A stretch of 64,000 nt of DNA from Alphaproteobacteria bacterium (GTDB lineage: Bacteria; Pseudomonadota; Alphaproteobacteria; CAAHEQ01; UBA3637), in assembly GCA_045614025.1 (NCBI GenBank), contig JAZLCE010000027.1, positions 63,033-127,032 on the forward strand, written 5' to 3'. The notes beneath the pieces were generated by a model, which did not search any database, was not told where the DNA came from, and saw nothing but the letters and a program-made list of their open reading frames with translations. Position 1 is the first letter of the stretch. Every line of letters begins with the position of its first letter. A program made the translations under genes and the position numbers. This document shows positions 5,916 through 62,772 of the stretch, piece after piece.

Positions 5916-8018
<2,103 letters not shown>

Positions 8019-8084
8019 AAAAATAGTTATGATATTTTTACATGTAAGGGGAAAGAATTTTGTCTTAAAATCGGGGTTAAAAAC

Positions 8085-10724
8085 ATGGCAGAAGATAGGG
8101 AACAAAATCAAACAGAAACAAAACAAACTGCTAGGCCTGCATACGGGATAAACAGCGAAGGTGAATTACTTCAACAAATCGCTTCAGCCGATATTCAAAA
8201 AGACCTTGCTAAGAAAAAGAAAAAAAAGGTTGTTCATAAATCTTTATCCTCTTTTTCAATTGTTTTCGTTATGAGAACAACTCTTTTTATTGATTCTCTT
8301 AAAAGAAATCATAAAAATTTTTTCAGAATTTGTTCTTACTTGTGGGCGTTTTTCCTTTCGCTGATTTATGCGGGTGGAATTACTATGATCAGCACCATTC
8401 ACTATTCTAAAATCCACTTTCCAACAATTGTTTCAAATCATTTAAAAAGAAATGAAATTTCAGTTGAATCTCTTAAAGTTGTTGATAACTCCTTATCGCA
8501 TATTCAAATTGCAGGACTTGAGGATACTGAAAAAACATATCGTGTTTCATATGTAAACCTTTATTCAACATTTGGTGATTTTTTAAGAAAAAAAGTAGAA
8601 CGCGTTGAACTTGAAAACGTTGTTGTAAAAATCAAAGAATCACAAAACTCTGTAAATCTCAGTCCATTGCTTTCACTGATTTTAAATTTAAGCGAAAGAT
8701 CAAGAATTAACATTCAAACAGTTGTTATTAAAAGTGGTGTTCTTGAATTTGAAGGTGAAAATTACAAAATCCCTATCAACTTTTCAATGGATGCAACATT
8801 GCAAAACAATAACCGTATGGATATTCCATTACGCATCAAAGATGAAAATACCAACTTAATGGCCCATTTAACCATTTCAAAAAATGGTGAAGATTTCATT
8901 TGGTCTATTAAAAACTTGCGAGGCAGTACAGATATTTTAAGCAAAAAACCAGAAAACGTTTCTGGATCTATCACATTAAAAACAAAAGAACTTTCCCCAA
9001 CTGAATTAAATATTGAAACAAACTTTTCATTAGGGTCTTCCAAAAAAACTCTTTTTATCGATTTGAAAAAAAATGGTCGCCTTTTCGAAGGGATAACAAC
9101 CTATACAAAATCTCATACACAAGATGATAAAACACAAATTGATGCAGATATATCCTTTAACTTTAAAGGATTAGAAATAACATCTTTTTCTTCTTTTTCC
9201 ACAAAAAAACCTTTTTCAATTAATGTTGAAACTTTAACACAACCCTCGTTCGAGTTAAATAGCCTTAAAACAACAATTAATGGTGATTTAAATTGTCAAA
9301 GGCGAATTTGTCAAATTGATATAACTCAACCATCCTCTATTCGTATTAAAGAAATTTCTTATAAAGATGGTGTTAACTCATATTCAAATACAAATCCTTT
9401 ACTTTTCACATTGTTACCTCAAAAAAATACTATGAAACTTGCCAATAGTTTTGTTAATATGAATATTAAAGGTGAAGATTTAGAGTTTAAAGGGAAAAAA
9501 TCAATCACAAATACACCTATTGAATTAACAAGCAAAGAATTTATCATTGCAACTGATATATCAAAACCAGATCAACCAGCTTCTTTTTCTGGTAGAAACT
9601 TAAACTTCAAAAATAAATCTCATGAAATCAAAAATGCTGCTGTTTATGTAAAAGATATTTATAACACATCTAATCAATTTTCTTTGAGCACAGATTATAT
9701 TAAATTATTTGAAAACAGCGTCATCAAACAACCTTTTGCTTTAGATATCCAATCTGAAAATGGGGATACAAAAGCTAAAGCTATTTTTGCTGATGGGCAA
9801 ATTGAAACCCTCTTCAATGGCACGATCAATTTAAACTCTGGTCACTTTTCTGGAACTATTTACATGCCACCAGTTAATTTGGCACATATTAAAAATATTT
9901 CAGAAGTTTCAGATTTATTCCCCGAGAGATTAACAGATTTAACTGGTAAAATATCTTTATATGGGAATATTGACTGGAAAAATGAACGTCAAATTTCAGG
10001 ACCAATGTATCTTTCTCTTAAAAATATAAACTTTGCCAAGGGAGAAACAAAGATTAAAAATTTAAACTCGGTTTTAACTCTTCAATCTTTAGCTCCATTT
10101 GTTTCACAAGCAACCCAAAATTTAGCTATTGATGAAATTGAAGCAGCCATTCCTTTGCAAAATGTTCGAGCCTCTGTTAAATTTGAAAATCAATTATTAC
10201 GTATTTTCTCTTTAACAGGATCTTTTGCGGGAATCCCTTTGACGGCTGATCATACAACTATTCCATATAAATCTTATAGCTCTTTACTTTATTTTAGAAA
10301 TGGTTCTTTTGATTGGAAAGATATCAATCCTTATTTAAATGTTACAGATTTAACATTACAGGGAACAGGAAGTATTTATATCCCAATTGAAGCCACACCA
10401 ACAAGTACAAAAATTAACAATGCCGAAGCAAGATTAATTAATACAACTTTGCTTTATAATGGAGATAATGAAGAACTCAAGAAAAACTTCTTTACAAAAG
10501 GAAATGAATATTCTGTGCGTAGTGGAACCATTGTTTTAAACAGCAAAGAAAAAAATGTTTTAGATGCTTATATTAACTTTGAAGGGCGCGAAAAGAATGA
10601 AACAGAACGCTCTTTTTATAGAGCAGATAAAACTTTTAACTTCCAAGAATTGTTTAAACCAGAGGCCACAACACCTCTTCCTTCAAACATTTTAAAAATG
10701 CAAAAACAACTTTTTGGGAACTAA
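8085..10724 (+). CDS. Large membrane-anchored beta-rich protein, possibly AsmA-like (function uncertain)
   Basis: 879 aa. Poly-Lys stretch then one N-terminal TM helix (FFRICSYLWAFFLSLIYAGGITMI), followed by a long Asn/Ser/Thr-rich domain with alternating hydrophobics. Confidence 0.5.
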   Translation: MAEDREQNQTETKQTARPAYGINSEGELLQQIASADIQKDLAKKKKKKVVHKSLSSFSIVFVMRTTLFIDSLKRNHKNFFRICSYLWAFFLSLIYAGGITMISTIHYSKIHFPTIVSNHLKRNEISVESLKVVDNSLSHIQIAGLEDTEKTYRVSYVNLYSTFGDFLRKKVERVELENVVVKIKESQNSVNLSPLLSLILNLSERSRINIQTVVIKSGVLEFEGENYKIPINFSMDATLQNNNRMDIPLRIKDENTNLMAHLTISKNGEDFIWSIKNLRGSTDILSKKPENVSGSITLKTKELSPTELNIETNFSLGSSKKTLFIDLKKNGRLFEGITTYTKSHTQDDKTQIDADISFNFKGLEITSFSSFSTKKPFSINVETLTQPSFELNSLKTTINGDLNCQRRICQIDITQPSSIRIKEISYKDGVNSYSNTNPLLFTLLPQKNTMKLANSFVNMNIKGEDLEFKGKKSITNTPIELTSKEFIIATDISKPDQPASFSGRNLNFKNKSHEIKNAAVYVKDIYNTSNQFSLSTDYIKLFENSVIKQPFALDIQSENGDTKAKAIFADGQIETLFNGTINLNSGHFSGTIYMPPVNLAHIKNISEVSDLFPERLTDLTGKISLYGNIDWKNERQISGPMYLSLKNINFAKGETKIKNLNSVLTLQSLAPFVSQATQNLAIDEIEAAIPLQNVRASVKFENQLLRIFSLTGSFAGIPLTADHTTIPYKSYSSLLYFRNGSFDWKDINPYLNVTDLTLQGTGSIYIPIEATPTSTKINNAEARLINTTLLYNGDNEELKKNFFTKGNEYSVRSGTIVLNSKEKNVLDAYINFEGREKNETERSFYRADKTFNFQELFKPEATTPLPSNILKMQKQLFGN

Positions 10725-49738: not shown

Positions 49739-51208
49739 TTATCGTCCACCTAACGGACCAGCATATCCCTTATCTCCTTCTTCTGGTAGGCCATCAGCAA
49801 CACAAGCACCATTAATTTTTTTGCCCCATGTGATGCAACAAAATGAATTATACATCCATTTACCACCAGCATTTTCGCAACAAGCTGCTGTTCTTGAACC
49901 AGTCATAATATCCATTGATCCTCTACAGCAAGAAGCGCTCGATTCTTCTTGATCTGGATCGCCAGGAGCACTACTGCTACTAGTAACCCATTCACCATAT
50001 GCATGTTCGCAACAAGCTTGAGTTGGTTTACCCTTTATATTTCTCGGAGAAGTTGGGTCTTCGCAACATTCCCCTTCACCACCATTACCGCCATCTGCAT
50101 AATTAGAGCTTGGGCAACAACCATAATAATCTCCATCAGGATACTCTTTATCATCACTGTTTTGACAGCAAGCCCCACCTATAGCAAACTTTCCAGTTTC
50201 ACAACAATCCGTATCGCCATAATTGCCGTTTTGTGGATTCACAAATTTTTTAATATAAACATTACCCTTACAACAAGCCCCTGATTTTAATTCAGAACCA
50301 TCGTCCAGCGTTACTTTTTTCACATAACCATCTTCATCTGATGCACAACAAGCATCAATATCTCCGAGATCTGATACTACTTTAGGGCTTTTACAGCAAT
50401 CTTCTATCACATCTGTTTCACTTGAATCATTATAGGCGCGCCCATAAACAGTTCCTCCTATACAACAACCAAGATCGGCCACCCCTGAATCAAAAGCTTT
50501 GTTATAGGCGTTTCCTCCATCCCCTACGCAACAATTAGAGGTTACTTTTGCGCCTGAATAAGTGATTACAACTTTACCATCTAGAGTCATCGATTGATAC
50601 ATTTGATTTGCCATTGCCGTGCCATCTTTTTCGGTTGCACAGCAATCGCCATTTTCCCATTTACCCTCTGCCGCCTTGCAACATTCCTTTGAATGGGCTT
50701 TTTTATCAAAATCATAAGCTTGAAAGCAACAGCGGTCTGAGTGTTCTTCCCCACCTTGCGCCCGGCAACATCTGGCATTATTCGACCCAGTTGACCAATA
50801 TTTCCAACTATCTGCAATGCAACAAATTCCACCGTTTCCTGGCATATTTTGAGTATCTGCAGCTCCTTCTAATGGCCAAAAGACATAGTTCCCAGGATCC
50901 TTTCCTTTTGCTATTTGACTTGTGCAACAATCTTCTGTTACAACTCCACCGCGAATTGGAATACCCTCTGGAGATAAAGCATATGCCGCGGTAACATTAT
51001 TGATTGAACAACAAGTGCCTCCACGCCATTCAAAGTTTTCTTCATTTCCCCAACCACCTTTGCAACAATCTTCAGAGGTTGAAATTTTAGACATGTAACA
51101 ACAATTTGGATTTAATACGGCTCCACCTCCACCTGACTGAGACATTACTTCGGTTGAAATCACCAAGGCGCCACTCAAAGATAAAATCATTCCCCATTTT
51201 TTCATCAT
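49739..51208 (-). CDS. Secreted vicinal-cysteine (CC-doublet) repeat protein B. Novel; no family recognised.
   Basis: Start trimmed to the ATG at 51208 (MMKKWGMILSLSGALVISTEVMS signal peptide, preceded by a G8 RBS-like tract). The mature ~465 aa contain about 22 Cys-Cys doublets spaced 8-35 residues apart and one single Cys. Gly/Asp/Asn-rich. Confidence 0.7.
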   Translation of the reverse strand: MMKKWGMILSLSGALVISTEVMSQSGGGGAVLNPNCCYMSKISTSEDCCKGGWGNEENFEWRGGTCCSINNVTAAYALSPEGIPIRGGVVTEDCCTSQIAKGKDPGNYVFWPLEGAADTQNMPGNGGICCIADSWKYWSTGSNNARCCRAQGGEEHSDRCCFQAYDFDKKAHSKECCKAAEGKWENGDCCATEKDGTAMANQMYQSMTLDGKVVITYSGAKVTSNCCVGDGGNAYNKAFDSGVADLGCCIGGTVYGRAYNDSSETDVIEDCCKSPKVVSDLGDIDACCASDEDGYVKKVTLDDGSELKSGACCKGNVYIKKFVNPQNGNYGDTDCCETGKFAIGGACCQNSDDKEYPDGDYYGCCPSSNYADGGNGGEGECCEDPTSPRNIKGKPTQACCEHAYGEWVTSSSSAPGDPDQEESSASCCRGSMDIMTGSRTAACCENAGGKWMYNSFCCITWGKKINGACVADGLPEEGDKGYAGPLGGR

Positions 51209-51214
51209 TTTTAT

Positions 51215-51222
51215 CCCCCCCC
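51215..51222 (-). repeat. Homopolymeric G8 tract (C8 on + strand) in the ribosome-binding spacer of CC-repeat gene B
   Basis: Read directly. It lies 6 nt upstream of the ATG at 51208 and 2 nt downstream of the stop of the preceding gene. Unusual in this AT-rich genome. Confidence 0.85.
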
Positions 51223-51224
51223 TT

Positions 51225-52484
51225 TTAATTGCGCTCTCTGGATGCGCTTTGATTCCGGCGTGTATTTCGCGCATTTCTTGAACTTGTTGTTCTTGTTCTA
51301 GATGAAGATCGGGATGATGCTCTGGAAGAGGATCTTGAAGAAGACCTGCCATCATATAATCCCCTAATAGGAACAACATCATAAACATGGTTCACCCCTT
51401 CTTCAATCTCATACGTATTAAAAGAGTTTACAACATATGTGTGCTTTACCAATTCTTCAACATACCGATTTGCTTTTTGATAGGTAAGGCAAAGCGCTCT
51501 GGTTAAGGGGGTTTTATTCATTGAAAGTGAGCGAACATTTCCACCTTTTTGTTGAATAATTTGTTCTAGCCCATCCATCATTTCCCTTAAAGCGGCTGGA
51601 GCATTCAATAATTGAGCTGCGCGAGCTGATAAGGATGGATTAATATCCTCTGGACTTGGTTGATTAAAAAAGGTGAGACTTATTGTACGATTATTGGCAA
51701 AAGATGTCGTAACAATTCCTTTACCTCCACAATCAGAACCAATGCCTAAAATTCCTGTTTCTAATAAACCTTCATAAGAATAAAGTGGATGCCCCAAAGT
51801 GCGATAAAGCGAAGCTTGTTGCTCTGTATAATTGGATAAATCCAATGCATCCGTATGTTGTCCAAAAAGAATCCATTTTGTTGGTATAAATTTACCCATT
51901 AATTGAGCTGGGTCCACCTCAGGATCGCGCCCCAAATCAACCAATTGCATGCCATAAAAATAATGAAAGTTTTCATTTAAAATAGCAAGAACATCTTTTA
52001 AAAATTCTTGATCAGGTTCATCCATCACTTTATTTCCGCGGTTCACTGCTCTTAATTCAGAAGCCGATAATTCAATCCATGGCCGATCCGTTTGCGGGTT
52101 AATGGCGGGTTCTTTTCGATATTCCCATGCTTGATCATCCCCAAAAAAGCGCGTGCGATATAAAAAGATATGCCCCCCTTTTTCATAAAGACCAATGCCA
52201 TCTTCATCATTCACATAAAGCAAGCTTTCGCCTGACATCAAATATCGATAATTGTTTCTATTTTGCTCTATCCATTCTTTAAAAACAGGATGAAGGGTGG
52301 CATAGTTATCGGCTTCTCGATAAAGCCTATAAATCGAAGTAGGGTTTTTGCGTTTGGATCCAAACCTTCCACTTGAAACGCGTTCACTTGGCGTATATTC
52401 GCAAGCAAGCAAATCCCTTGATTCCAAGGTGGAAGCGCAAACGCCCCACATAACCGATAATAACAATAAGTCTTTATATCTCAT
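51225..52484 (-). CDS. Secreted protein with a C-terminal Arg/Ser-rich (RS-repeat) tail. Unknown function.
   Basis: Signal peptide MRYKDLLLLSVMWGVCAST. The last ~40 aa read GRSSSRSSSRASSRSSSRTRTTSSRNARNTRRNQSASRERN. No recognised catalytic motifs. Confidence 0.65.
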   Translation of the reverse strand: MRYKDLLLLSVMWGVCASTLESRDLLACEYTPSERVSSGRFGSKRKNPTSIYRLYREADNYATLHPVFKEWIEQNRNNYRYLMSGESLLYVNDEDGIGLYEKGGHIFLYRTRFFGDDQAWEYRKEPAINPQTDRPWIELSASELRAVNRGNKVMDEPDQEFLKDVLAILNENFHYFYGMQLVDLGRDPEVDPAQLMGKFIPTKWILFGQHTDALDLSNYTEQQASLYRTLGHPLYSYEGLLETGILGIGSDCGGKGIVTTSFANNRTISLTFFNQPSPEDINPSLSARAAQLLNAPAALREMMDGLEQIIQQKGGNVRSLSMNKTPLTRALCLTYQKANRYVEELVKHTYVVNSFNTYEIEEGVNHVYDVVPIRGLYDGRSSSRSSSRASSRSSSRTRTTSSRNARNTRRNQSASRERN

Positions 52485-52517
52485 TTATCCTCACTTTCAC
52501 TTTGCTTTTTTAAGCAA

Positions 52518-55337
52518 TTATCCATTCCCCCCAACAACGCCTTCTTCAGGACAGGAGCCAACATATGTGCCATAACCATTTTCAACACCTGGAGGACAAT
52601 CATATGTTCTTAGCGTTTTTCTTCGCTCAACTTCAACAATGCCACCAGGTTTTGAGCTTCCAGGAATATGCGTATATTTAAAGCATTCTTTTGCTGGCTT
52701 ATTTTTCAAACCTCTGGGTATGAAGCAATCATCCCCATAAGCAAGCCCACTTGGATTACTTGGACAACAAGCACAAGATATTGTTCCATTAGCCAAAACA
52801 CCTTCCTCTTGACAGCAATTTCCATTAATCTCTTTACATACTGTGGTATCACATTCCATTTCTTGCGTGTCTGGAATCACTTCTTCTTCTGTCTTAATTG
52901 TATCTATATACGTGCAATAATCATAGCATTTATCTGGGTTTGGTTGGGGCCCCTCTGTGCACTTTTTACAACTTGTGCATTTTGAACCATCCCAATATAT
53001 GCCTTTTCCACCAGCTTGCATGGATGCATAATCACAACAAATTTTACTTTCCGTTCCATCAATAGCTTGCCCCGTTTTTAAATCACAACACATACTTTCA
53101 GTTGTGTTATATGAGATACCCGTTGGATAACAAGTTGTTCCAGAGGTCCCAGTTGGGCACTGACCCGCCTGAGCATACCCTTGAATCGTTGTTCCCACCA
53201 AAACAAACGTTCCTTTGGAGCGAATAAGTGGATTTGTTGTATTATAATAAAGAGGAGATTCGCAACATTCTTTATAATTATTTTTCACATCACCTTCTGT
53301 TGCGCTCATAGAAGTACCCTCTAATGTTTGGCAACAATATTCTGGCGAAGGCATCCCGCTCCAATCTCTAATCTTTTGATCATAAGTTAACGCAGTTCCA
53401 GAACGTTCAAGCTCTTTATAATCCACACAACAGTTGCGATCTGGCTCTGGAACACTGGTAGGCGCAGTCGCAATAATTCCACATTCTTGTGAAATATTTT
53501 GTCCAACTTGATAATGTGGGCCATGAACATAAGAAAGTTTTCGTCCATTCATATCCGTTGCCACATTACAGCATTCTTGAGAATATTTAAGCACACCACC
53601 TTCATAAGCACAAGCAGATGTTTTTAAACGTTTTTGAAGCCCTTCCATTTTATAACAGCAATCTGTTGTTGGCGTTCCCATAATATCCAATGGAGCAGCC
53701 CCTGTAATCGGCGTTCCCAATGTTGGAACATTAGAAACACCTTCCCATGGACATTGCTCAGTTGTTGAAGCCGTGCGAAACGCCAGCACATCATTTTGCG
53801 AACAACAAAGCGCTTTTCCAGTTTCTGATGTAAGATTTGTACCAGCAACTTGGCCATCGGCTTCTGCCCAATATCCTCCTCCTGCAATGCAACACTGATC
53901 GACCGTTACTTCACTTGTTTGAGATGAACTTCCCAATGGACAGTTTTGATATTGGGTGGATGTTGATCCTTTTGATGTAGCAATTGTCCACGGCAATACT
54001 GCCCCCGTGATGGATGAAATGTGACATGGCACGGTAATAGATGTTGTAGGAGGTTCACCCGGGCAACAAGATGCATCCATCTCACCAGCCCAGTTGCCGC
54101 CAATATAAATCTCTTCTTCCGAAGTGATAGCGTCCGTATCAAAAACCCACGTTTCTTCATAAACCGGTATTCCATTTTCATCTACAACTGGTTTACCTGT
54201 GGCATCTGTTTTAGCAGTGATACGAACAGAATAACGCCCATCTGGGCCCACTTTACAACGAGGTGTATTTTCAATATTTTCAACCAGTTTACAACATTTT
54301 GGCCCCCCTGGAATGAAAACAACATCATCACCCAACAATTCACAACATTCTTGCGATTCAATGTGTCCACCACTTTCTTCAGTATATGGCGTACCAGGAA
54401 CACAAGTCATATCCGGTGTTGGCAGTAAATCAATCCCTTGTTTTTGACCGAAATAAAGAACCAATGTTTGAAGTGGAATCATTTTCTTTGATCCATCCTC
54501 ATTTTTTTCACCCGTATCTACCCTTGCCCCATAGGCCATACAAGCCAAACTTTTTTTATTTTCGCAAACAGAACCTGCCCCTGGAGCGGTTTCTGGATTA
54601 TCTTCATCTTCAAGATTTCTGAGATATTTTTGCGCTAAAGAAATATTTCCTTTAGTTGGGTCAATCATGGTGCAAACTTTATCAATTTGTTCTTTTGTTG
54701 CAATGCCTTCTTCCCCACCCCGTTCTGGGTTTGCATATTTATTTTCTTTTGAAATATTCAAAAAGTCTGGCGTAAAAGGATCCATCGGCGATCCACTCTG
54801 ACTTTGAAGCGCAACATATGCATAATCAAAACCTAAATCGCTTTTGTATAATAACTTTTCACATAACGTATAGGAAAGCCCTGTAACACGAACAGTCCAG
54901 TTATTTTCATCTTCAGCACGAACCCAAGCTGGTGCATCAAGCAAGGTATCAAACGATTCATGTTCGCGCACCTCAACCATCTTGGATCTATCGCCACCAA
55001 CAAGCTTGCCCTCTTCGTCAATTAACCCAGCATCAAAGGCCGATTCTTCCGAACGATACCGCACCCTTGAAACAACATCTCTGATTGGAATAATATATGG
55101 AACATAGTCATCAGCAATACCAACTGTTTGAAATCCATAATGAAGAGGAATATCCCATGAACGACCACCTGCAACTAAAACACTAAGCTGATCCAATGTT
55201 TCAGCTTCTTGATATAAACGCATTGCGTAGCCATAACCAACAATTCCACCAATTGATAAAACCCCCGCCAAGGCCAAAACGCCAAGCATTTCAGCCATTG
55301 TTCGTCCGTTCTCCATCCCAATTTTTTCTTTTTGCAT
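52518..55337 (-). CDS. Large membrane-anchored/secreted Cys-rich protein A with CC doublets and a pilin-like N-terminus. Novel.
   Basis: ATG at 55337 with AGGGGA RBS is preferred over the upstream TTG at 55364. N-terminus MQKEKIGMENG/RTMAEMLGVLALAGVLSIGGIVGY has a Gly before a hydrophobic helix and Glu at +5. The ~900-aa Gly/Thr/Ser-rich body has 14 or more CC doublets plus about 30 single Cys. Confidence 0.65.
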   Translation of the reverse strand: MQKEKIGMENGRTMAEMLGVLALAGVLSIGGIVGYGYAMRLYQEAETLDQLSVLVAGGRSWDIPLHYGFQTVGIADDYVPYIIPIRDVVSRVRYRSEESAFDAGLIDEEGKLVGGDRSKMVEVREHESFDTLLDAPAWVRAEDENNWTVRVTGLSYTLCEKLLYKSDLGFDYAYVALQSQSGSPMDPFTPDFLNISKENKYANPERGGEEGIATKEQIDKVCTMIDPTKGNISLAQKYLRNLEDEDNPETAPGAGSVCENKKSLACMAYGARVDTGEKNEDGSKKMIPLQTLVLYFGQKQGIDLLPTPDMTCVPGTPYTEESGGHIESQECCELLGDDVVFIPGGPKCCKLVENIENTPRCKVGPDGRYSVRITAKTDATGKPVVDENGIPVYEETWVFDTDAITSEEEIYIGGNWAGEMDASCCPGEPPTTSITVPCHISSITGAVLPWTIATSKGSTSTQYQNCPLGSSSQTSEVTVDQCCIAGGGYWAEADGQVAGTNLTSETGKALCCSQNDVLAFRTASTTEQCPWEGVSNVPTLGTPITGAAPLDIMGTPTTDCCYKMEGLQKRLKTSACAYEGGVLKYSQECCNVATDMNGRKLSYVHGPHYQVGQNISQECGIIATAPTSVPEPDRNCCVDYKELERSGTALTYDQKIRDWSGMPSPEYCCQTLEGTSMSATEGDVKNNYKECCESPLYYNTTNPLIRSKGTFVLVGTTIQGYAQAGQCPTGTSGTTCYPTGISYNTTESMCCDLKTGQAIDGTESKICCDYASMQAGGKGIYWDGSKCTSCKKCTEGPQPNPDKCYDYCTYIDTIKTEEEVIPDTQEMECDTTVCKEINGNCCQEEGVLANGTISCACCPSNPSGLAYGDDCFIPRGLKNKPAKECFKYTHIPGSSKPGGIVEVERRKTLRTYDCPPGVENGYGTYVGSCPEEGVVGGNG

Positions 55338-55394
55338 CGGACATCCCCTTTTTTCATATGTCAAAAAGAAGGGTTAACAACCCCGTATACTTTC

Positions 55395-55470: not shown

Positions 55471-56172
55471 TTAATCAACAGATAACCAAGCCCATGCTCC
55501 CAAAATGGCAATAGATGCTGTTTCAGCCCTTAAAATGGTATCCCCCAAATGAAGGGGCACAACATTTTTTTGACATAAAATAAAATCAACTTCATCTGGT
55601 GTAAAACCACCTTCAGGACCAATAATAAATGCTGGATTTTTCACTTCAAATAACGTTTTTGATCCTGTTTTACCGCGCTCGGTTAAAAAAACAGGCGTGA
55701 CCTCTTTTGAAAATTTTAAAAACAAATCTTTTAAAAGAATCGGTTCAAAAATTTCAGGCACATCCAACCTTTCTGATTGTTCAGCCGCCTCTTGTATAAT
55801 TAAATGAGCTCTTTCAATATTAAATCCACGCACAACAGTTCGATTTGTTATAACAGGATAAATTTTGGTGACCCCCAATTCCGTTGCCTTTTCTAACACA
55901 AGGTCCATATTTTCTTTTTTAATCACAGAGGGGCATAAAATAAGCTCTGCGCGCTTTGAAAATTCTTTTGTTTTTTCTAATACTTGCAATAAACAATTTT
56001 TTTTCTTTACATTGCTTACTTTTGCTTTAAATTCGCCATCAACCGAATTAAAAAGCAAAATTTCAGAACCTTCTTTTTGGCGCATCACATGAACTAAATA
56101 ATGCGCTTGTTTTTCATCCAAAGAAAGTTCCTGCCCTGTGGATAACTTTTCTTTTACAAATAATCTAATCAT
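55471..56172 (-). CDS. rsmE: 16S rRNA (uracil1498-N3)-methyltransferase RsmE
   Basis: 233 aa. N-terminal PUA-like region and a C-terminal SPOUT domain. Start overlaps the stop of the upstream gene (ATGA). Confidence 0.75.
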   Translation of the reverse strand: MIRLFVKEKLSTGQELSLDEKQAHYLVHVMRQKEGSEILLFNSVDGEFKAKVSNVKKKNCLLQVLEKTKEFSKRAELILCPSVIKKENMDLVLEKATELGVTKIYPVITNRTVVRGFNIERAHLIIQEAAEQSERLDVPEIFEPILLKDLFLKFSKEVTPVFLTERGKTGSKTLFEVKNPAFIIGPEGGFTPDEVDFILCQKNVVPLHLGDTILRAETASIAILGAWAWLSVD

Positions 56173-58169
56173 CTTTTTTTCCTGTGTGATGAAAGTGGCA
56201 ATCCTTCAACCCAAACAAGGGTCACATCATCTTGCGGAGGTGGGGGTATCATTTTGAAAAAGAGTTGCATTAATTCAGAAACAGCTTCCCTGCTATCCTT
56301 ATAGTCAAAAACTGTTTGTAACAAACTTAAAAAGCCATCTGTTCCCAAACGCAAACCATCAGAAGACATTTCCTCAGTGAGCGCATCACTATATAAAATT
56401 AACTTATCGCCAGCACAAAAATCAATTTTATAATCATCATATTTTGCATCAGGACTAATTCCCAATGGAAGCCCTTGTGTTGAAAGCAATAAAACGCCAT
56501 TTCTTGTTTTTAAAAATGGCGCAGGTGACCCTGCTCCTGCATAAGAAAGTGTTTGGGCATTTGTATCAAAAATGCAAAAGAAAAACGTTGCATACTGCCC
56601 ACGTGGTAACAACTGACACAACTGCAAATTTAAAAGACGCAAGAAATCTGATGGATTTTTAACTTCTTTTTTCAATTGATGAACCAATGTATGCAGCCTA
56701 AAGGTATTTAACGCCGCTGAAAGCCCATGCCCTGAAAAATCGCATAAAAACAATCCAAATTTCTTTTCAGAAAGCTCTATAACCTGCCAAAAATCGCCAC
56801 CTAATCTATCTGATGGTGAAAAATAAGAAGCAATATCAATATGACATTTTTCCCGAATATTTTCAAGAGTATCAACCGTTGGCAAAAGCGATTGTTGCAT
56901 TTCTTGAGAAATCTTCATTTCCTCATTCAGCTGATCTAATTGATCTGATAAATATTCAACCAATTTTTTATTTTCTAAATGAACACGAACCCTTGTGAAA
57001 AACTCCAAGGGATTAATTGGCTTTGTGATAAAATCAGAAGCACCTGCTTTAAATGTTCGATCCCTTGCTTCCCGCGTGTCACTTGATGTTTGAATTAAAA
57101 TTGGAATATTTTTAACTTCAGGAATTTTTTTAAGCTCCAATAAAACATCATATCCATCCATTTTTTCCATTACAATATCAAGAATAATTAAATCTGGATG
57201 AAATAAAATAGCTTTTTCTATTCCTTCTTCGCCGGAAGAAGCGACCTCAATTTTATGGATTCCCATTTGGGTTAAAAGGCCAGCTAAAAGTGCCTGATTA
57301 CTTTTATTATCTTCAATAATTAATACTCTTCCTTTTGAAATATCTGTTTGCATAACAAATTCTGGAATAGAAGATAAATTTTGAATAGAGGTATTTTCTT
57401 TATTCTCCTTCAAAAAAGAAAGAGTAATTTCTTTACCATAATTATCAATCGTGCATGAATCAACAGCATGCGCAATAATTTGAAGACCACGACCACTTTT
57501 AGAAGAAACATCCCCTGAATTTCTTTTTAAAATTTGCTCTAAAGAATAACCCACACCCTCATCTTTAATTTTAATTTCTAATCGCATTTTATTCCATACA
57601 GAGCAAATTGATATGGCTTTTTGGGCATATGCAGGCGTATTTAACCTTCTTGCAACCAAATCTAAATAAGAAACAAATCCAACAACATCTTGACGCATTG
57701 AACTTGATAATTGCAAATTTCCATGAAAAAGACCATTCACTAAAGCTTCATGAACAGCCAAGTGAATCGCTTGTTTTCGTTCATCTGAAAATTTTCTTCG
57801 TTGTTGCAAAGCTGTTGTGAAAACTTGCGCAACATCATACCTATAAACCATTGGCCCTGTTAAAAGCAAACTTAAAGAAAAAGGATGCTTTCTTTCTTTT
57901 TGTTGCTCAACAAAATCAACGATACTTTTTTTCGTTGCATTTGCATCAATAATGCAAGCAATCGGCAATTTTAAAATTTCTCGCCCATGTTCTTCAGAAA
58001 CATCTGGCGTTACAACAACATATAAAATCGGATGGTCTTTTTTAAGTGGGGTTACTAAAAACGGCTCTTCTTCACTTGGCCAAAGTGGCAACTTAACCCA
58101 AGATGAAATTTTTTTCATCTTTTCAAGACTAACGCCAACCCCTGTTAAACATATTTGTGTCTCACTCAT
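56169..58169 (-). CDS. Fused signalling protein: RsbW/SpoIIAB-like GHKL serine kinase domain, then a response-regulator receiver, then a PP2C/SpoIIE phosphatase
   Basis: GHKL N-box HEALVNGLFHG, G1 DEGVGY and G2 GRGLQI. Receiver VLIIEDN...DLIILDIVM...K. PP2C region GGDFWQV...LCDFSGHG. Confidence 0.7.
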   Translation of the reverse strand: MSETQICLTGVGVSLEKMKKISSWVKLPLWPSEEEPFLVTPLKKDHPILYVVVTPDVSEEHGREILKLPIACIIDANATKKSIVDFVEQQKERKHPFSLSLLLTGPMVYRYDVAQVFTTALQQRRKFSDERKQAIHLAVHEALVNGLFHGNLQLSSSMRQDVVGFVSYLDLVARRLNTPAYAQKAISICSVWNKMRLEIKIKDEGVGYSLEQILKRNSGDVSSKSGRGLQIIAHAVDSCTIDNYGKEITLSFLKENKENTSIQNLSSIPEFVMQTDISKGRVLIIEDNKSNQALLAGLLTQMGIHKIEVASSGEEGIEKAILFHPDLIILDIVMEKMDGYDVLLELKKIPEVKNIPILIQTSSDTREARDRTFKAGASDFITKPINPLEFFTRVRVHLENKKLVEYLSDQLDQLNEEMKISQEMQQSLLPTVDTLENIREKCHIDIASYFSPSDRLGGDFWQVIELSEKKFGLFLCDFSGHGLSAALNTFRLHTLVHQLKKEVKNPSDFLRLLNLQLCQLLPRGQYATFFFCIFDTNAQTLSYAGAGSPAPFLKTRNGVLLLSTQGLPLGISPDAKYDDYKIDFCAGDKLILYSDALTEEMSSDGLRLGTDGFLSLLQTVFDYKDSREAVSELMQLFFKMIPPPPQDDVTLVWVEGLPLSSHRKKR

Positions 58170-58318
58170 AGTATCGAGTATAATAAAACAATTAAAAAAA
58201 ACAAGTTTTTTTATTGTTATATGAAAAAAACTTTGCTCTTTATTTCTCTTTTTGTTATATTATCCCTATTAAATTAACTCTTGTTCCAAAAAAAACAAGA
58301 TAACTGAAAGGATAAAAA

Positions 58319-59892: not shown

Positions 59893-59925
59893 AAAAAAGC
59901 GCTTTAAAAGCGCTTTTTTTTATTC
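59893..59925. terminator. Bidirectional terminator between convergent genes
   Basis: Stem AAGCGCTTT/AAAGCGCTT flanked by an A-run and a T-run. It abuts the stop of the minus-strand GT11 gene. Confidence 0.6.
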
Positions 59926-61323
59926 GGTAATAAATTGATTCTTTTTTTTGCTCCAATAATGCTTTTCAACTTCAATTACAACAAAATTTGGAGCAAGCAA
60001 ATTTTTAATCCAATCGGTGTCCCAACTCGTATGTTTATCTGGAGTAATTATAATTTTATTTTTATTTCTGCTTAAAAAAGATCCCCACCAAGAAAAGCTT
60101 GAGTTTGCATTGATAAAATGTTTACAATTGCTCATCAGTTGCAAATCTTCATAATCTTTACGTGTCCAGTCAACATAAACATGTGGTGCATCAATTTTTA
60201 TATTTTCTTTTGACCATTTCAAATCATTTGAAAAAATATAAAATACTGGATTTTTTACATTTCTTTTAATATATTCAATAGCTTGAGAATAATAATTTTG
60301 TGTCAACAAAATATATTCAAAATAAATATAGTCACCTCTTCTAACATGAAGGGCCACACTATTTTCTGACTTCATTTTATTCATGATTTCTTTATTTTTA
60401 TCACTTACTTCATTTTTAAAAACAACATTTTCGCGAATATAATCTTCGTATCCAGCAAAGTTCTTCCATGATTGCAAATACCACCCTGTTTCATAGCATG
60501 ATGCATTAGTTGGAAATTCATGATTAAAATAACATTTAGTCAAATTTAAATAGCGCTTAACAAATTCTGGAGCTCTTTTATATTTCAATAATGAGTTATC
60601 TGTTGTTGCCTTTATCGGTGTATCTAAAAAGTTATCAAAATAAGACCATTCTACCCTATAAAGCGTTTTATGATTTCTTTTCGCATAAACCAATCCACTT
60701 AAATATGAAAAAAGCTGGTTACCTAATCCACCAATATTTGGCGAACTTAAAACATAATCATTAATATTCTTAAAACCTTCTTTTTCTAAATAAGGATCTA
60801 AATTATATTTTTCATTTGTTTTCACATACTCAAATTCTTTATTTTTTTTAAAAACTTCTACGCCATGATTTAACCAACCCAAAACAACTTTTTGATTATT
60901 ATCTTCAAGCAAAACCGCACAATCATTTCTGGATTTGCATAACAATTTGGAATCATTAGATTGATACATGATAGCATTCCAATGTGGATGTTTGAAATAT
61001 GACATATCCGCATCTGGTGTTTTGCATTTTATATCTAAAAATCTATTTAATCTTGAAACATCAAAAACTTTTTTTGTTGCATTTTGATCTATTATCTCGT
61101 TTTTAAATAAACATAAATGGGATTGATCAATTTCTTTTATTTTAGATTCCGAAAAAATCTTTTTCAAAAAAACATTTCGCCGTTCTTGATCATTAAAAAT
61201 TGTTTTTTCAAATCCCCAATAAAAATGCTCAGGGAACTGTTCTTCTAAAGAGATGGATTGCTCCTTAACTCCTTTAGAAAAAAACATACACACTATGCTT
61301 AAGAAAATAATAATTATTTTCAA
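59920..61323 (-). CDS. GT11-family alpha-1,2-fucosyltransferase homologue with a ~190-aa N-terminal extension
   Basis: GT11 motifs HVRRGDY, GGLGNQLFSY, SNDLKWSKEN in the C-terminal 280 aa. N-terminal signal peptide or anchor MKIIIIFLSIVCMFFS. Confidence 0.75.
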   Translation of the reverse strand: MKIIIIFLSIVCMFFSKGVKEQSISLEEQFPEHFYWGFEKTIFNDQERRNVFLKKIFSESKIKEIDQSHLCLFKNEIIDQNATKKVFDVSRLNRFLDIKCKTPDADMSYFKHPHWNAIMYQSNDSKLLCKSRNDCAVLLEDNNQKVVLGWLNHGVEVFKKNKEFEYVKTNEKYNLDPYLEKEGFKNINDYVLSSPNIGGLGNQLFSYLSGLVYAKRNHKTLYRVEWSYFDNFLDTPIKATTDNSLLKYKRAPEFVKRYLNLTKCYFNHEFPTNASCYETGWYLQSWKNFAGYEDYIRENVVFKNEVSDKNKEIMNKMKSENSVALHVRRGDYIYFEYILLTQNYYSQAIEYIKRNVKNPVFYIFSNDLKWSKENIKIDAPHVYVDWTRKDYEDLQLMSNCKHFINANSSFSWWGSFLSRNKNKIIITPDKHTSWDTDWIKNLLAPNFVVIEVEKHYWSKKKNQFITE

Positions 61324-61473
61324 AATAACCCCTCTTTCATTATTAATATAACTACAAAAAATACTTTTTCATGTCAACTTAAAAAGGGAATTTTTTTACA
61401 AGAACTTTTTATTTGCAATTTATTTTTCTTTTAGTTAGAATGAAATAAACCACTTTTAGGGAAGGGATTTACC

Positions 61474-62772
61474 ATGCATATTCGCTCGTTTATGTTTTTA
61501 TCCACTATCGCTTTTTTATATACAGGTCTGATAGCTCAAGCAACAACTTTACCCTCTGTTGTTTGTCAAAATAAAAAATGTTACCCAGCAGAAGCCTCTT
61601 TAACAAGAAAGAGTTTGTTTGATCGTGTTCAAAATTTAATCAATGAAAACGTTAATAAAGATATTTTAATTTGCGAAGCAGATTCCTATTCAAAAATGTG
61701 TTTAACAAAAGGATTTTCCCTTCCATTACATTCATCTTCTGTTTCAACAAAAATAAATTTTCTTTCAGCCAAAATTATCAGTAATGAAAGTATTGAAAAT
61801 TCCACTGGAACTGATTTAATTATCGATTATAAAACAAAATCAGACAATATTTTTCCTAATTGTCAAACTGCACCCAGCCGTTTAGGAATTTTAGATAAAA
61901 ACAGCATTCAAATGGTGACTCCAGACTTTACCTGCAGTTTCGGAAACTTAAACCAATCCACTATCAGTCTTACTTATCATATTGACTATATCAATTTTGA
62001 TAATGGAACTATTGGTGCCCATTATAGTATTGCAGCAGGGCAAAGATTAAAAGGGCAATCTTATGGATATGTGTTATTTAGATTTGCTCAACCAAGCTCT
62101 ATCAATTCAAACGAACCATTCCCTATGCAAGATGTTTTGCAAAACTATCAAATAGAGCATCAAAACGCTCAAATGCAAATGCCTCCTGTTTGGATGAAAC
62201 CAACACCTGTTCTCAATATTGAAACACCACAAGTAATAACAAAAGCAGATGGATCCTTAGTTGTTCAAAACCAACAACCGCAAAACACACCATCAACACA
62301 AGGTGTTCCCTCAACAACTGGATTAATTACACAAGAAAAAAATATTTTACCTCCAACACAAGGCTTAAGAAAAACTGTTACAATAAAAAAACAGATATTC
62401 CAAGAAGGCAAACCCGTTGTTTATGAGGAAGATGTTCGCCACTATGTTCAAGAAAATGAAAATGCACCATTAATTGAGGAAAAACAAAACGCTCAACAAG
62501 TTGAAGAAAAACAGCCTGATATTCCTCAAATGCCAACCCCGGTTAATCATTTACCACAAAATCAAATAAACCCTCAAATTCCAAGTTATATTTTTCCACA
62601 TGAGGTGATATTATCTCCAGAAGAAATGGAACAAATTCAAAAAGAATTACCCCCAGAAACACCTGTTCAATCTCATCAGATAAACCCTCAAAATATCATG
62701 CCGATTGAAACAGATGAACCATCTGGTTTAAATAAACTTTGGAATAAAATTGAAAAATTACTTTACTTTTAA
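61474..62772 (+). CDS. Secreted protein with a Pro/Gln-rich low-complexity C-terminal half. Unknown.
   Basis: Signal peptide MHIRSFMFLSTIAFLYTGLIAQA. The N-terminal half is Cys-containing and globular. The C-terminal half has PQ/NPQ repeats. Confidence 0.6.
   Translation: MHIRSFMFLSTIAFLYTGLIAQATTLPSVVCQNKKCYPAEASLTRKSLFDRVQNLINENVNKDILICEADSYSKMCLTKGFSLPLHSSSVSTKINFLSAKIISNESIENSTGTDLIIDYKTKSDNIFPNCQTAPSRLGILDKNSIQMVTPDFTCSFGNLNQSTISLTYHIDYINFDNGTIGAHYSIAAGQRLKGQSYGYVLFRFAQPSSINSNEPFPMQDVLQNYQIEHQNAQMQMPPVWMKPTPVLNIETPQVITKADGSLVVQNQQPQNTPSTQGVPSTTGLITQEKNILPPTQGLRKTVTIKKQIFQEGKPVVYEEDVRHYVQENENAPLIEEKQNAQQVEEKQPDIPQMPTPVNHLPQNQINPQIPSYIFPHEVILSPEEMEQIQKELPPETPVQSHQINPQNIMPIETDEPSGLNKLWNKIEKLLYF

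Follow-up and report, generated by a model that had tools for sequence, protein, structure and literature searches.

The 64-kb window analysed here (the whole stretch of 64,000 nucleotides from contig JAZLCE010000027.1 of an alphaproteobacterial assembly) carries at 56169-58169, on the reverse strand, an open reading frame (ORF) of 666 amino acids in which an RsbW-type GHKL serine kinase, a receiver (REC) domain and a PP2C serine phosphatase are joined in one chain. We propose that this protein, the regulator, is a SypE-type tripartite response regulator that derives from fused partner-switching genes and acts on a separately encoded STAS-type substrate, a reading that we consider probable on the basis of its likeness to characterized systems. 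The kinase-REC-PP2C architecture is already known, and the regulator is an uncharacterized relative of the SypE class that introduces no new signalling principle. Experimental work on SypE-type regulators has so far been confined to Vibrio, and there the architecture continues to be called "unique". The equivalent architecture described here is fixed, with strong conservation, throughout a clade of uncultured Alphaproteobacteria from gut and rumen whose small genomes are dominated by housekeeping genes. It also comes with a clear evolutionary route to kinase-REC-PP2C fusions, namely the joining of two overlapping genes of an operon.

A model-made first-pass annotation of the window had read the ORF as an RsbW-type kinase, a receiver and a PP2C domain in one polypeptide, and a scan with domain profiles bore this out. 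HATPase_c_2 matched residues 113-251 (43.2 bits against a cut-off of 27.4), Response_reg residues 282-394 (85.4 bits) and SpoIIE residues 468-655 (134.3 bits), all above their Pfam cut-offs, and no STAS domain was detected. As judged from the sequence, all three domains carry intact catalytic residues. The kinase motifs quoted in the first-pass annotation proved to be the true N-box (HEALVNGLFHGN, with H140, E141 and N145), G1 box (DEGVGY, with D203, G205 and G207) and G2 box (GRGLQI, with G226-R227-G228), and their residues are kept in 119-120 of 120 homologs in an alignment of family members on which all conservation counts given here are based. The receiver has the acidic pair E286-D287, the phospho-acceptor D331, T361 and K383; D331 is kept in 119 of the 120 homologs and the other four residues in 117-119. 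The metal-binding aspartates of the PP2C domain (D459, D477, D595, D647 and D648) are invariant. Conservation at this level (117-120 of 120) suggests that the kinase and phosphatase activities and the phosphorylation of the receiver are maintained by selection, and it points to a fusion that is real, old and selected for all three activities. The first-pass annotation had named a missed HisKA domain and lost GHKL catalytic residues as the findings that would count against its reading; HisKA and HATPase_c gave no Pfam match in the regulator at E <= 1, and the GHKL residues are in place.

Searches against other collections gave a consistent picture. NCBIfam returned sub-threshold matches only, with RssB_Pseudo, a REC-PP2C model, at the top, and the best Protein Data Bank (PDB) sequence matches of the receiver were PleD and Pseudomonas aeruginosa RssB. 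For the kinase domain (57390-57887, reverse strand) the best sequence match with a solved structure was PDB 9qih, a 304-residue protein called 'SenB' with a REC and a GHKL domain (E 0.013). We found no publication for this entry, and the SenB of the literature is an unrelated selenium glycosyltransferase.

The regulator belongs to a sizeable family. A database search gave 659 matches, of which the best 120 listed were mostly ~650-680 amino acids long and 45-100% identical, all with the same three Pfam domains. The few named homologs go by 'SpoIIE family protein phosphatase' or 'response regulator' and come from alphaproteobacterial metagenome-assembled genomes (MAGs). The first of these names, which is the current annotation, undersells the protein. 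A scan of species-representative genomes gave 77 related loci, nearly all of them labelled uncultured Alphaproteobacteria, with the rumen, the gut and faeces as frequent sources. Hundreds of full-length orthologs are present in alphaproteobacterial MAGs from gut and rumen.

The origin of the fusion was suggested by the sole non-alphaproteobacterial locus in the genome scan, from Candidatus Sulfotelmatobacter (L079). Here the order is a methyl-accepting chemotaxis protein (MCP), two STAS proteins, a 251-residue HATPase_c_2 protein and a REC-SpoIIE protein; both STAS proteins were confirmed by Pfam and have the classic FIDSAG motif, and the ATG of the REC-SpoIIE gene overlaps the stop codon of the kinase gene. 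A search with the L079 kinase led to a family of stand-alone kinases (family A3, P0140-P0171), and its closer members, roughly the first 18, have a consistent length of 237-253 amino acids. These kinases have ~95 residues without a Pfam domain ahead of HATPase_c_2, with an invariant E76, and some are annotated at source as 'anti-sigma regulatory factor (Ser/Thr protein kinase)'. Comparable split operons were found in an Azospirillaceae MAG (L085) and in L086, both with the order STAS-STAS-kinase-REC/PP2C-PilZ, and in L087, with the order CheA-CheW-CheR-CheD-CheB-MCP-STAS-kinase-REC/PP2C-REC/PP2C. Every split operon has a 4-bp overlap between its kinase and REC/PP2C genes (ATGA in L085, as in L079) and, ahead of these, one or two genes whose STAS domain was confirmed by Pfam. 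The complete Che cluster of L087, the MCP of L079 and the PilZ neighbours of L085 and L086 suggest chemosensory-type input and an output linked to cyclic di-GMP in those operons.

Profile-profile alignment with hhalign related the fused family to the stand-alone kinases with 99.95% probability (E 3e-38), continuously over residues 6-251, and paired the invariant D75 of the fused proteins with the invariant E76 of the stand-alone kinases. In direct alignment, residues 94-254 of the regulator match the Azospirillaceae kinase to its final residue (31% identity, E 5e-26), and residues 266-605 match the adjacent REC/PP2C product from its residue 9 onwards (37% identity, E 2e-82). The split operons, which are of the RsbV-RsbW-RsbY or RbaV-RbaW-RbaY type, are true homologs with the same gene order and an equivalent N-terminal extension of ~95 amino acids. 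They differ in encoding separate polypeptides with an adjacent STAS gene and often Che/MCP or PilZ genes, whereas the regulator is one chain with none of these linked. Most likely, the regulator gene is a fusion of the adjacent, translationally coupled kinase and REC/PP2C genes of a STAS(-STAS)-kinase-REC/PP2C operon.

The AlphaFold2 model of the regulator (mean predicted local distance difference test score, pLDDT, 83.5) is in keeping with this origin. Confidence falls below 50 at residues 258-273, and residues 256-279 are the least conserved part of the family alignment, with insertions and deletions. A single helix of ~40 residues (387-427) connects the receiver with the PP2C domain, a linker of the RssB/RsbU type. 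When the whole model was compared by Foldseek, P. aeruginosa RssB (3f7a/3eq2; REC-linker-PP2C) ranked first at E 3e-20; other matches were the PP2C domains of SiaA and SpoIIE and the fused RsbU-RsbW domains of Rv1364c (3ke6). For the PP2C domain, the matches to RssB, SiaA, Rv1364c and SpoIIE reached template modelling (TM) scores of up to 0.84, normalized by target length. The likeness to RssB lies in the REC-helical linker-PP2C portion; RssB has no kinase domain and is a proteolysis adaptor for sigma-S.

Among characterized proteins the same domain order, RsbW/HPK-like serine kinase, receiver and PP2C, is found in SypE of Vibrio fischeri (PMC10120452, PMC3610818). SypE adds phosphate to Ser56 of the STAS protein SypA and also removes it, and phosphotransfer from RscS turns it from a kinase into a phosphatase (PMC10120452). 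Its 140-residue N-terminal domain suffices for inhibition and requires the N-box residue N52 (PMC3610818), an asparagine that is essential for kinase function and corresponds to N145 of the regulator. The two proteins also differ: the SypE kinase begins at residue 1, whereas the regulator has an extra N-terminal module of ~92 residues, and SypE is encoded together with sypA in the syp polysaccharide locus of a gammaproteobacterium, whereas the alphaproteobacterial regulator has housekeeping neighbours and no linked STAS gene. Because the SypE kinase starts at residue 1 (N52 against N145), the Vibrio and alphaproteobacterial fusions are probably independent events, each of which preserved the gene order of its operon.

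We infer the direction of the switch, the nature of the substrate and that of the upstream kinase by analogy with these systems. In the mechanism that we favour, D331 of the receiver would be phosphorylated by an unlinked histidine kinase, CheA-like kinase or Hpt protein; in some of the split relatives the phosphodonor may be of the Che type. The signal would travel from the receiver through the long helical linker and activate the PP2C domain, and the net activity on the STAS-type substrate would move from phosphorylation, which would need N145 and the G1 and G2 boxes of the kinase domain, to dephosphorylation. The output would be the phosphorylation state of the substrate. Crossing helical linkers of this kind have been proposed as a general route by which N-terminal sensors, receivers included, activate PP2C domains (PMC12143880). 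That a kinase and a phosphatase of opposing activity are controlled by an internal receiver, as the first-pass annotation suggested, remains by this analogy the best-supported mechanism.

The first-pass annotation had presented the fusion as unusual, a view that does not survive comparison with SypE and with further single-chain examples. HsbR of P. aeruginosa and CrsR of Shewanella oneidensis likewise unite a receiver, a PP2C domain and an RsbW-like kinase and act on the STAS proteins HsbA and CrsA (PMC6482189). They have the permuted order REC-PP2C-kinase, with the kinase/anti-sigma domain binding RpoS (PMC6482189), and an adjacent STAS partner, whereas the regulator has the order kinase-REC-PP2C and thus falls outside the HsbR/CrsR type. 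In Mycobacterium tuberculosis Rv1364c, too, a single chain holds an RsbU-type PP2C domain along with an RsbW-type kinase; its layout is PAS-PP2C-kinase-STAS, with a PAS sensor and a STAS domain of its own, whereas the regulator would sense through a receiver and has no STAS domain. Two candidate SypE-like proteins from a plasmid collection were rejected. The Vibrio match proved to be of the HsbR/CrsR type, and the Chondrinema match was an ordinary hybrid histidine kinase of 1233 amino acids. An unannotated 560-residue HsbR/CrsR-type REC-PP2C-kinase protein is encoded at 6992-8674 of locus L083 (Vibrio campbellii, NZ_CP050465.1), a 2.06-Mb replicon that is filed as a 'plasmid' and has 2 annotated features only.

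Several observations weigh against the proposed SypE-type function. The resemblance to SypE is an architectural analogy drawn from its published layout, not orthology. The direction of the switch differs among known systems, with CrsR binding unphosphorylated CrsA and HsbR binding phosphorylated HsbA (PMC6482189), and is not simply transferable to the regulator. Most directly, partners were sought in the window and in the flanks of the 77 related loci (±10 kb around the gene, about 1.4 Mb in total and a small fraction of each genome). STAS proteins were looked for by Pfam on small ORFs, by phmmer and hmmsearch with confirmed STAS seeds and in the precomputed Pfam assignments of neighbours; the window gave none, and neither did the flanks outside L079, so that for this lineage the proposed substrate is a hypothetical one. 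No linked gene in the window or flanks encoded a histidine kinase, Hpt or CheA. Additional REC, GHKL or PP2C domains were absent from the window, and in the flanks they were confined to L079 and a lone REC ORF of 122 residues (L063).

We next consider alternative outputs and targets. The kinase domain could serve mainly as an anti-sigma factor in the style of CrsR/HsbR or RsbW, in which case binding of a dephosphorylated STAS antagonist would free a sigma factor and the output would be transcription. This overlaps with the SypE-type reading and differs from it in output only. The kinase does belong to the HATPase_c_2 (RsbW/SpoIIAB) family, and CrsR and HsbR, with the same three domains, bind RpoS through theirs (PMC6482189). 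However, neither the loci of the fused family nor the split operons had a linked sigma factor gene, and in SypE and the alphaproteobacterial Rba system the literature indicates that the STAS protein itself appears to be the output, with no cognate sigma factor found. An anti-sigma role is possible but rather unlikely.

A second alternative arises from the genomic neighbourhood. The regulator gene and rsmE share 4 bp (ATGA, 56169-56172), in which the rsmE start codon runs into the regulator's stop codon, and rsmE lies directly downstream of the regulator in 74 of the 77 related loci (44-98% identity), mostly with the same overlap. Co-transcription with rsmE, which the first-pass annotation had raised, is plausible on these two grounds, and the regulator and rsmE probably form a two-gene operon that is co-transcribed and translationally coupled. 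The split-operon relatives lack rsmE at the corresponding position. A divergent NMO-family gene is found upstream in 29 of the 77 loci; the remaining neighbours are housekeeping genes that vary by lineage, and the rest of the window is housekeeping as well. One could imagine that the STAS partner was lost and that the kinase and phosphatase now act on the regulator itself (for instance at S82 or T104) or on an unrelated protein, possibly one linked to ribosome maturation. The split relatives always have an adjacent STAS gene while none was found in the sampled neighbourhoods of the fused family, the coupling to rsmE is peculiar to that family, and S82 and T104 are kept in 116 and 120 of the 120 homologs, respectively. 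Against this, known systems commonly have their STAS gene at an unlinked site, the sampling covered a small fraction of each genome, and synteny with a housekeeping gene requires no functional link. T104 is moreover kept (as T103) in stand-alone kinases that have STAS partners and is therefore probably structural. We regard loss of the STAS partner as improbable. Equally doubtful is its broader form, in which the gut and rumen family would have fused the genes, dropped STAS and retargeted both activities, conceivably to ribosome maturation via rsmE, with the N-terminal module as a new docking or regulatory domain.

The nature of this N-terminal module bears on a third alternative. The first-pass annotation had left ~110 residues unassigned and suggested that they might be STAS-like. 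In the AlphaFold2 model, the kinase starts with a strand (97-104) and a helix (105-124) ahead of the N-box helix (129-152), which we take to be the beta1-alpha1-alpha2 start of SpoIIAB/RsbW-type kinases. Since the strand and first helix belong to the kinase, the unexplained part shrinks to ~92 residues. Modelled alone (pLDDT 84), it has the topology beta-alpha-beta-alpha-beta-alpha. P47 and D75 are invariant among the homologs, and W30, P31, S82 and F86 nearly so. The module had no Pfam match at E <= 1, STAS and STAS_2 included; hhalign gave a probability of 0.4% against the bona fide STAS protein of a related operon, no STAS fold was among its top 50 Foldseek matches, and no serine of the 'DSxG' type is conserved in it across the 120 homologs. 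We therefore reject its identification as a STAS domain. A true receiver was rejected as well: the Foldseek matches to CheY-like receivers in the PDB were weak (E 0.02-0.2, TM about 0.5), and hhalign gave less than 1% against the family's own REC profile. The residue distribution at position 58 (T74 S17 E11 D11 N5 G2) could be taken for a phosphosite with phosphomimetic replacements but is more simply explained as a helix N-cap preference.

A profile search with the module against 1.84 billion representative sequences returned 20 proteins at E <= 0.001, nearly all of them family members or fragments, and the short matches that might have been stand-alone versions were truncated fragments of the same fused family. 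Compared alone with the N-terminal extension of the stand-alone kinases, the module aligned in the same register but not significantly (E 0.009, probability 4.5%). As the related stand-alone kinases (~245 residues) carry an equivalent extension, the module appears to belong with the kinase, and the simplest reading of the sequences is that it came along with it. This unannotated N-terminal extension was flagged separately as a feature of a subfamily of long RsbW-like kinases.

These results bear on the self-contained partner-switch hub of the first-pass annotation, in which a STAS-like N-terminus would be phosphorylated in cis. Rv1364c offers a precedent, with kinase, phosphatase and STAS in one chain, and the module is an alpha/beta domain of roughly the size of a STAS domain. 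Its identity as STAS is nevertheless contradicted by the profile, structural and motif evidence above, and the stand-alone kinases with the equivalent extension have separate STAS genes adjoining them. A switch in cis is thus highly improbable, and an external substrate would be needed. Finally, a hybrid histidine kinase with an unrecognized HisKA/DHp domain and a PP2C output can be set aside almost entirely: GHKL ATPase motifs are common to histidine kinases and RsbW-type kinases and some NCBIfam hybrid histidine kinase models match the regulator, but they do so through the receiver alone, the Pfam match is to HATPase_c_2 and not to HisKA or HATPase_c, ahead of the N-box the model has one strand and two helices in a SpoIIAB-like arrangement and no DHp hairpin, and the closest homologs are ~245-residue stand-alone kinases in STAS operons.

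Table 1 Coordinates of the regulator domains, neighbouring elements and related split operons (window positions, except for the split operons, which are given by locus)
Feature	Position	Strand	Remarks
N-terminal alpha/beta module	57894-58169	-	residues 1-92
RsbW/SpoIIAB-type GHKL serine kinase domain	57405-57887	-	residues ~95-255; Pfam HATPase_c_2
Variable linker, presumed fusion junction	57333-57404	-	residues ~256-279; low pLDDT, low conservation
Receiver (REC) domain	56979-57332	-	residues ~280-397; Pfam Response_reg
Long alpha-helical REC-PP2C linker	56841-56978	-	residues ~398-443; helix itself 387-427
PP2C/SpoIIE serine phosphatase domain	56202-56840	-	residues ~444-656; Pfam SpoIIE
rsmE (16S rRNA methyltransferase family)	55471-56172	-	Pfam Methyltrans_RNA and PUA_4
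AT-rich intergenic region, 149 bp	58170-58318		separates the regulator from the divergent NMO-family gene; presumably holds the promoters of both
Terminator-like hairpin and T-run	55370-55384	-	just downstream of rsmE; consensus scan only
Split operon L087	1-9246		
Split operon L079	6912-11655		
Split operon L085	5167-8312		
Split operon L086	5238-8281		

The hairpin downstream of rsmE is the probable end of the regulator-rsmE unit, and the consensus scan placed a promoter-like site at 55423-55395, ahead of a Cys-rich gene. Beyond it, three consecutive large ORFs of 948 (very Cys-rich), 419 and 549 amino acids occupy 49739-55364 on the reverse strand; none has a Pfam match. They were found in the two closest related loci only (L003 and L005), and this restriction to the closest relatives places them outside the conserved regulator unit. 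They are the 'CC operon' that the first-pass annotation had considered possibly co-transcribed with the regulator; the intervening hairpin and promoter-like site and the restricted occurrence of these genes argue against this.

Two further features were noted upstream of the regulator. A gene for a glycosyltransferase of family 11 (fucosyltransferase-like; 59920-61323, reverse strand) falls within a local minimum of GC content, 28% over 60001-62000 compared with ~34% nearby, which may indicate horizontal acquisition. A 432-residue ORF without a Pfam match (61474-62772, forward strand) has weak homologs (24-34% identity) directly downstream of rsmE in about 16 more distant loci, while closer homologs (39-90% identity) lie upstream, as in the window, in 6 loci. 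In the lineage of the window, the gene for this ORF has apparently changed its place with respect to the regulator and rsmE.

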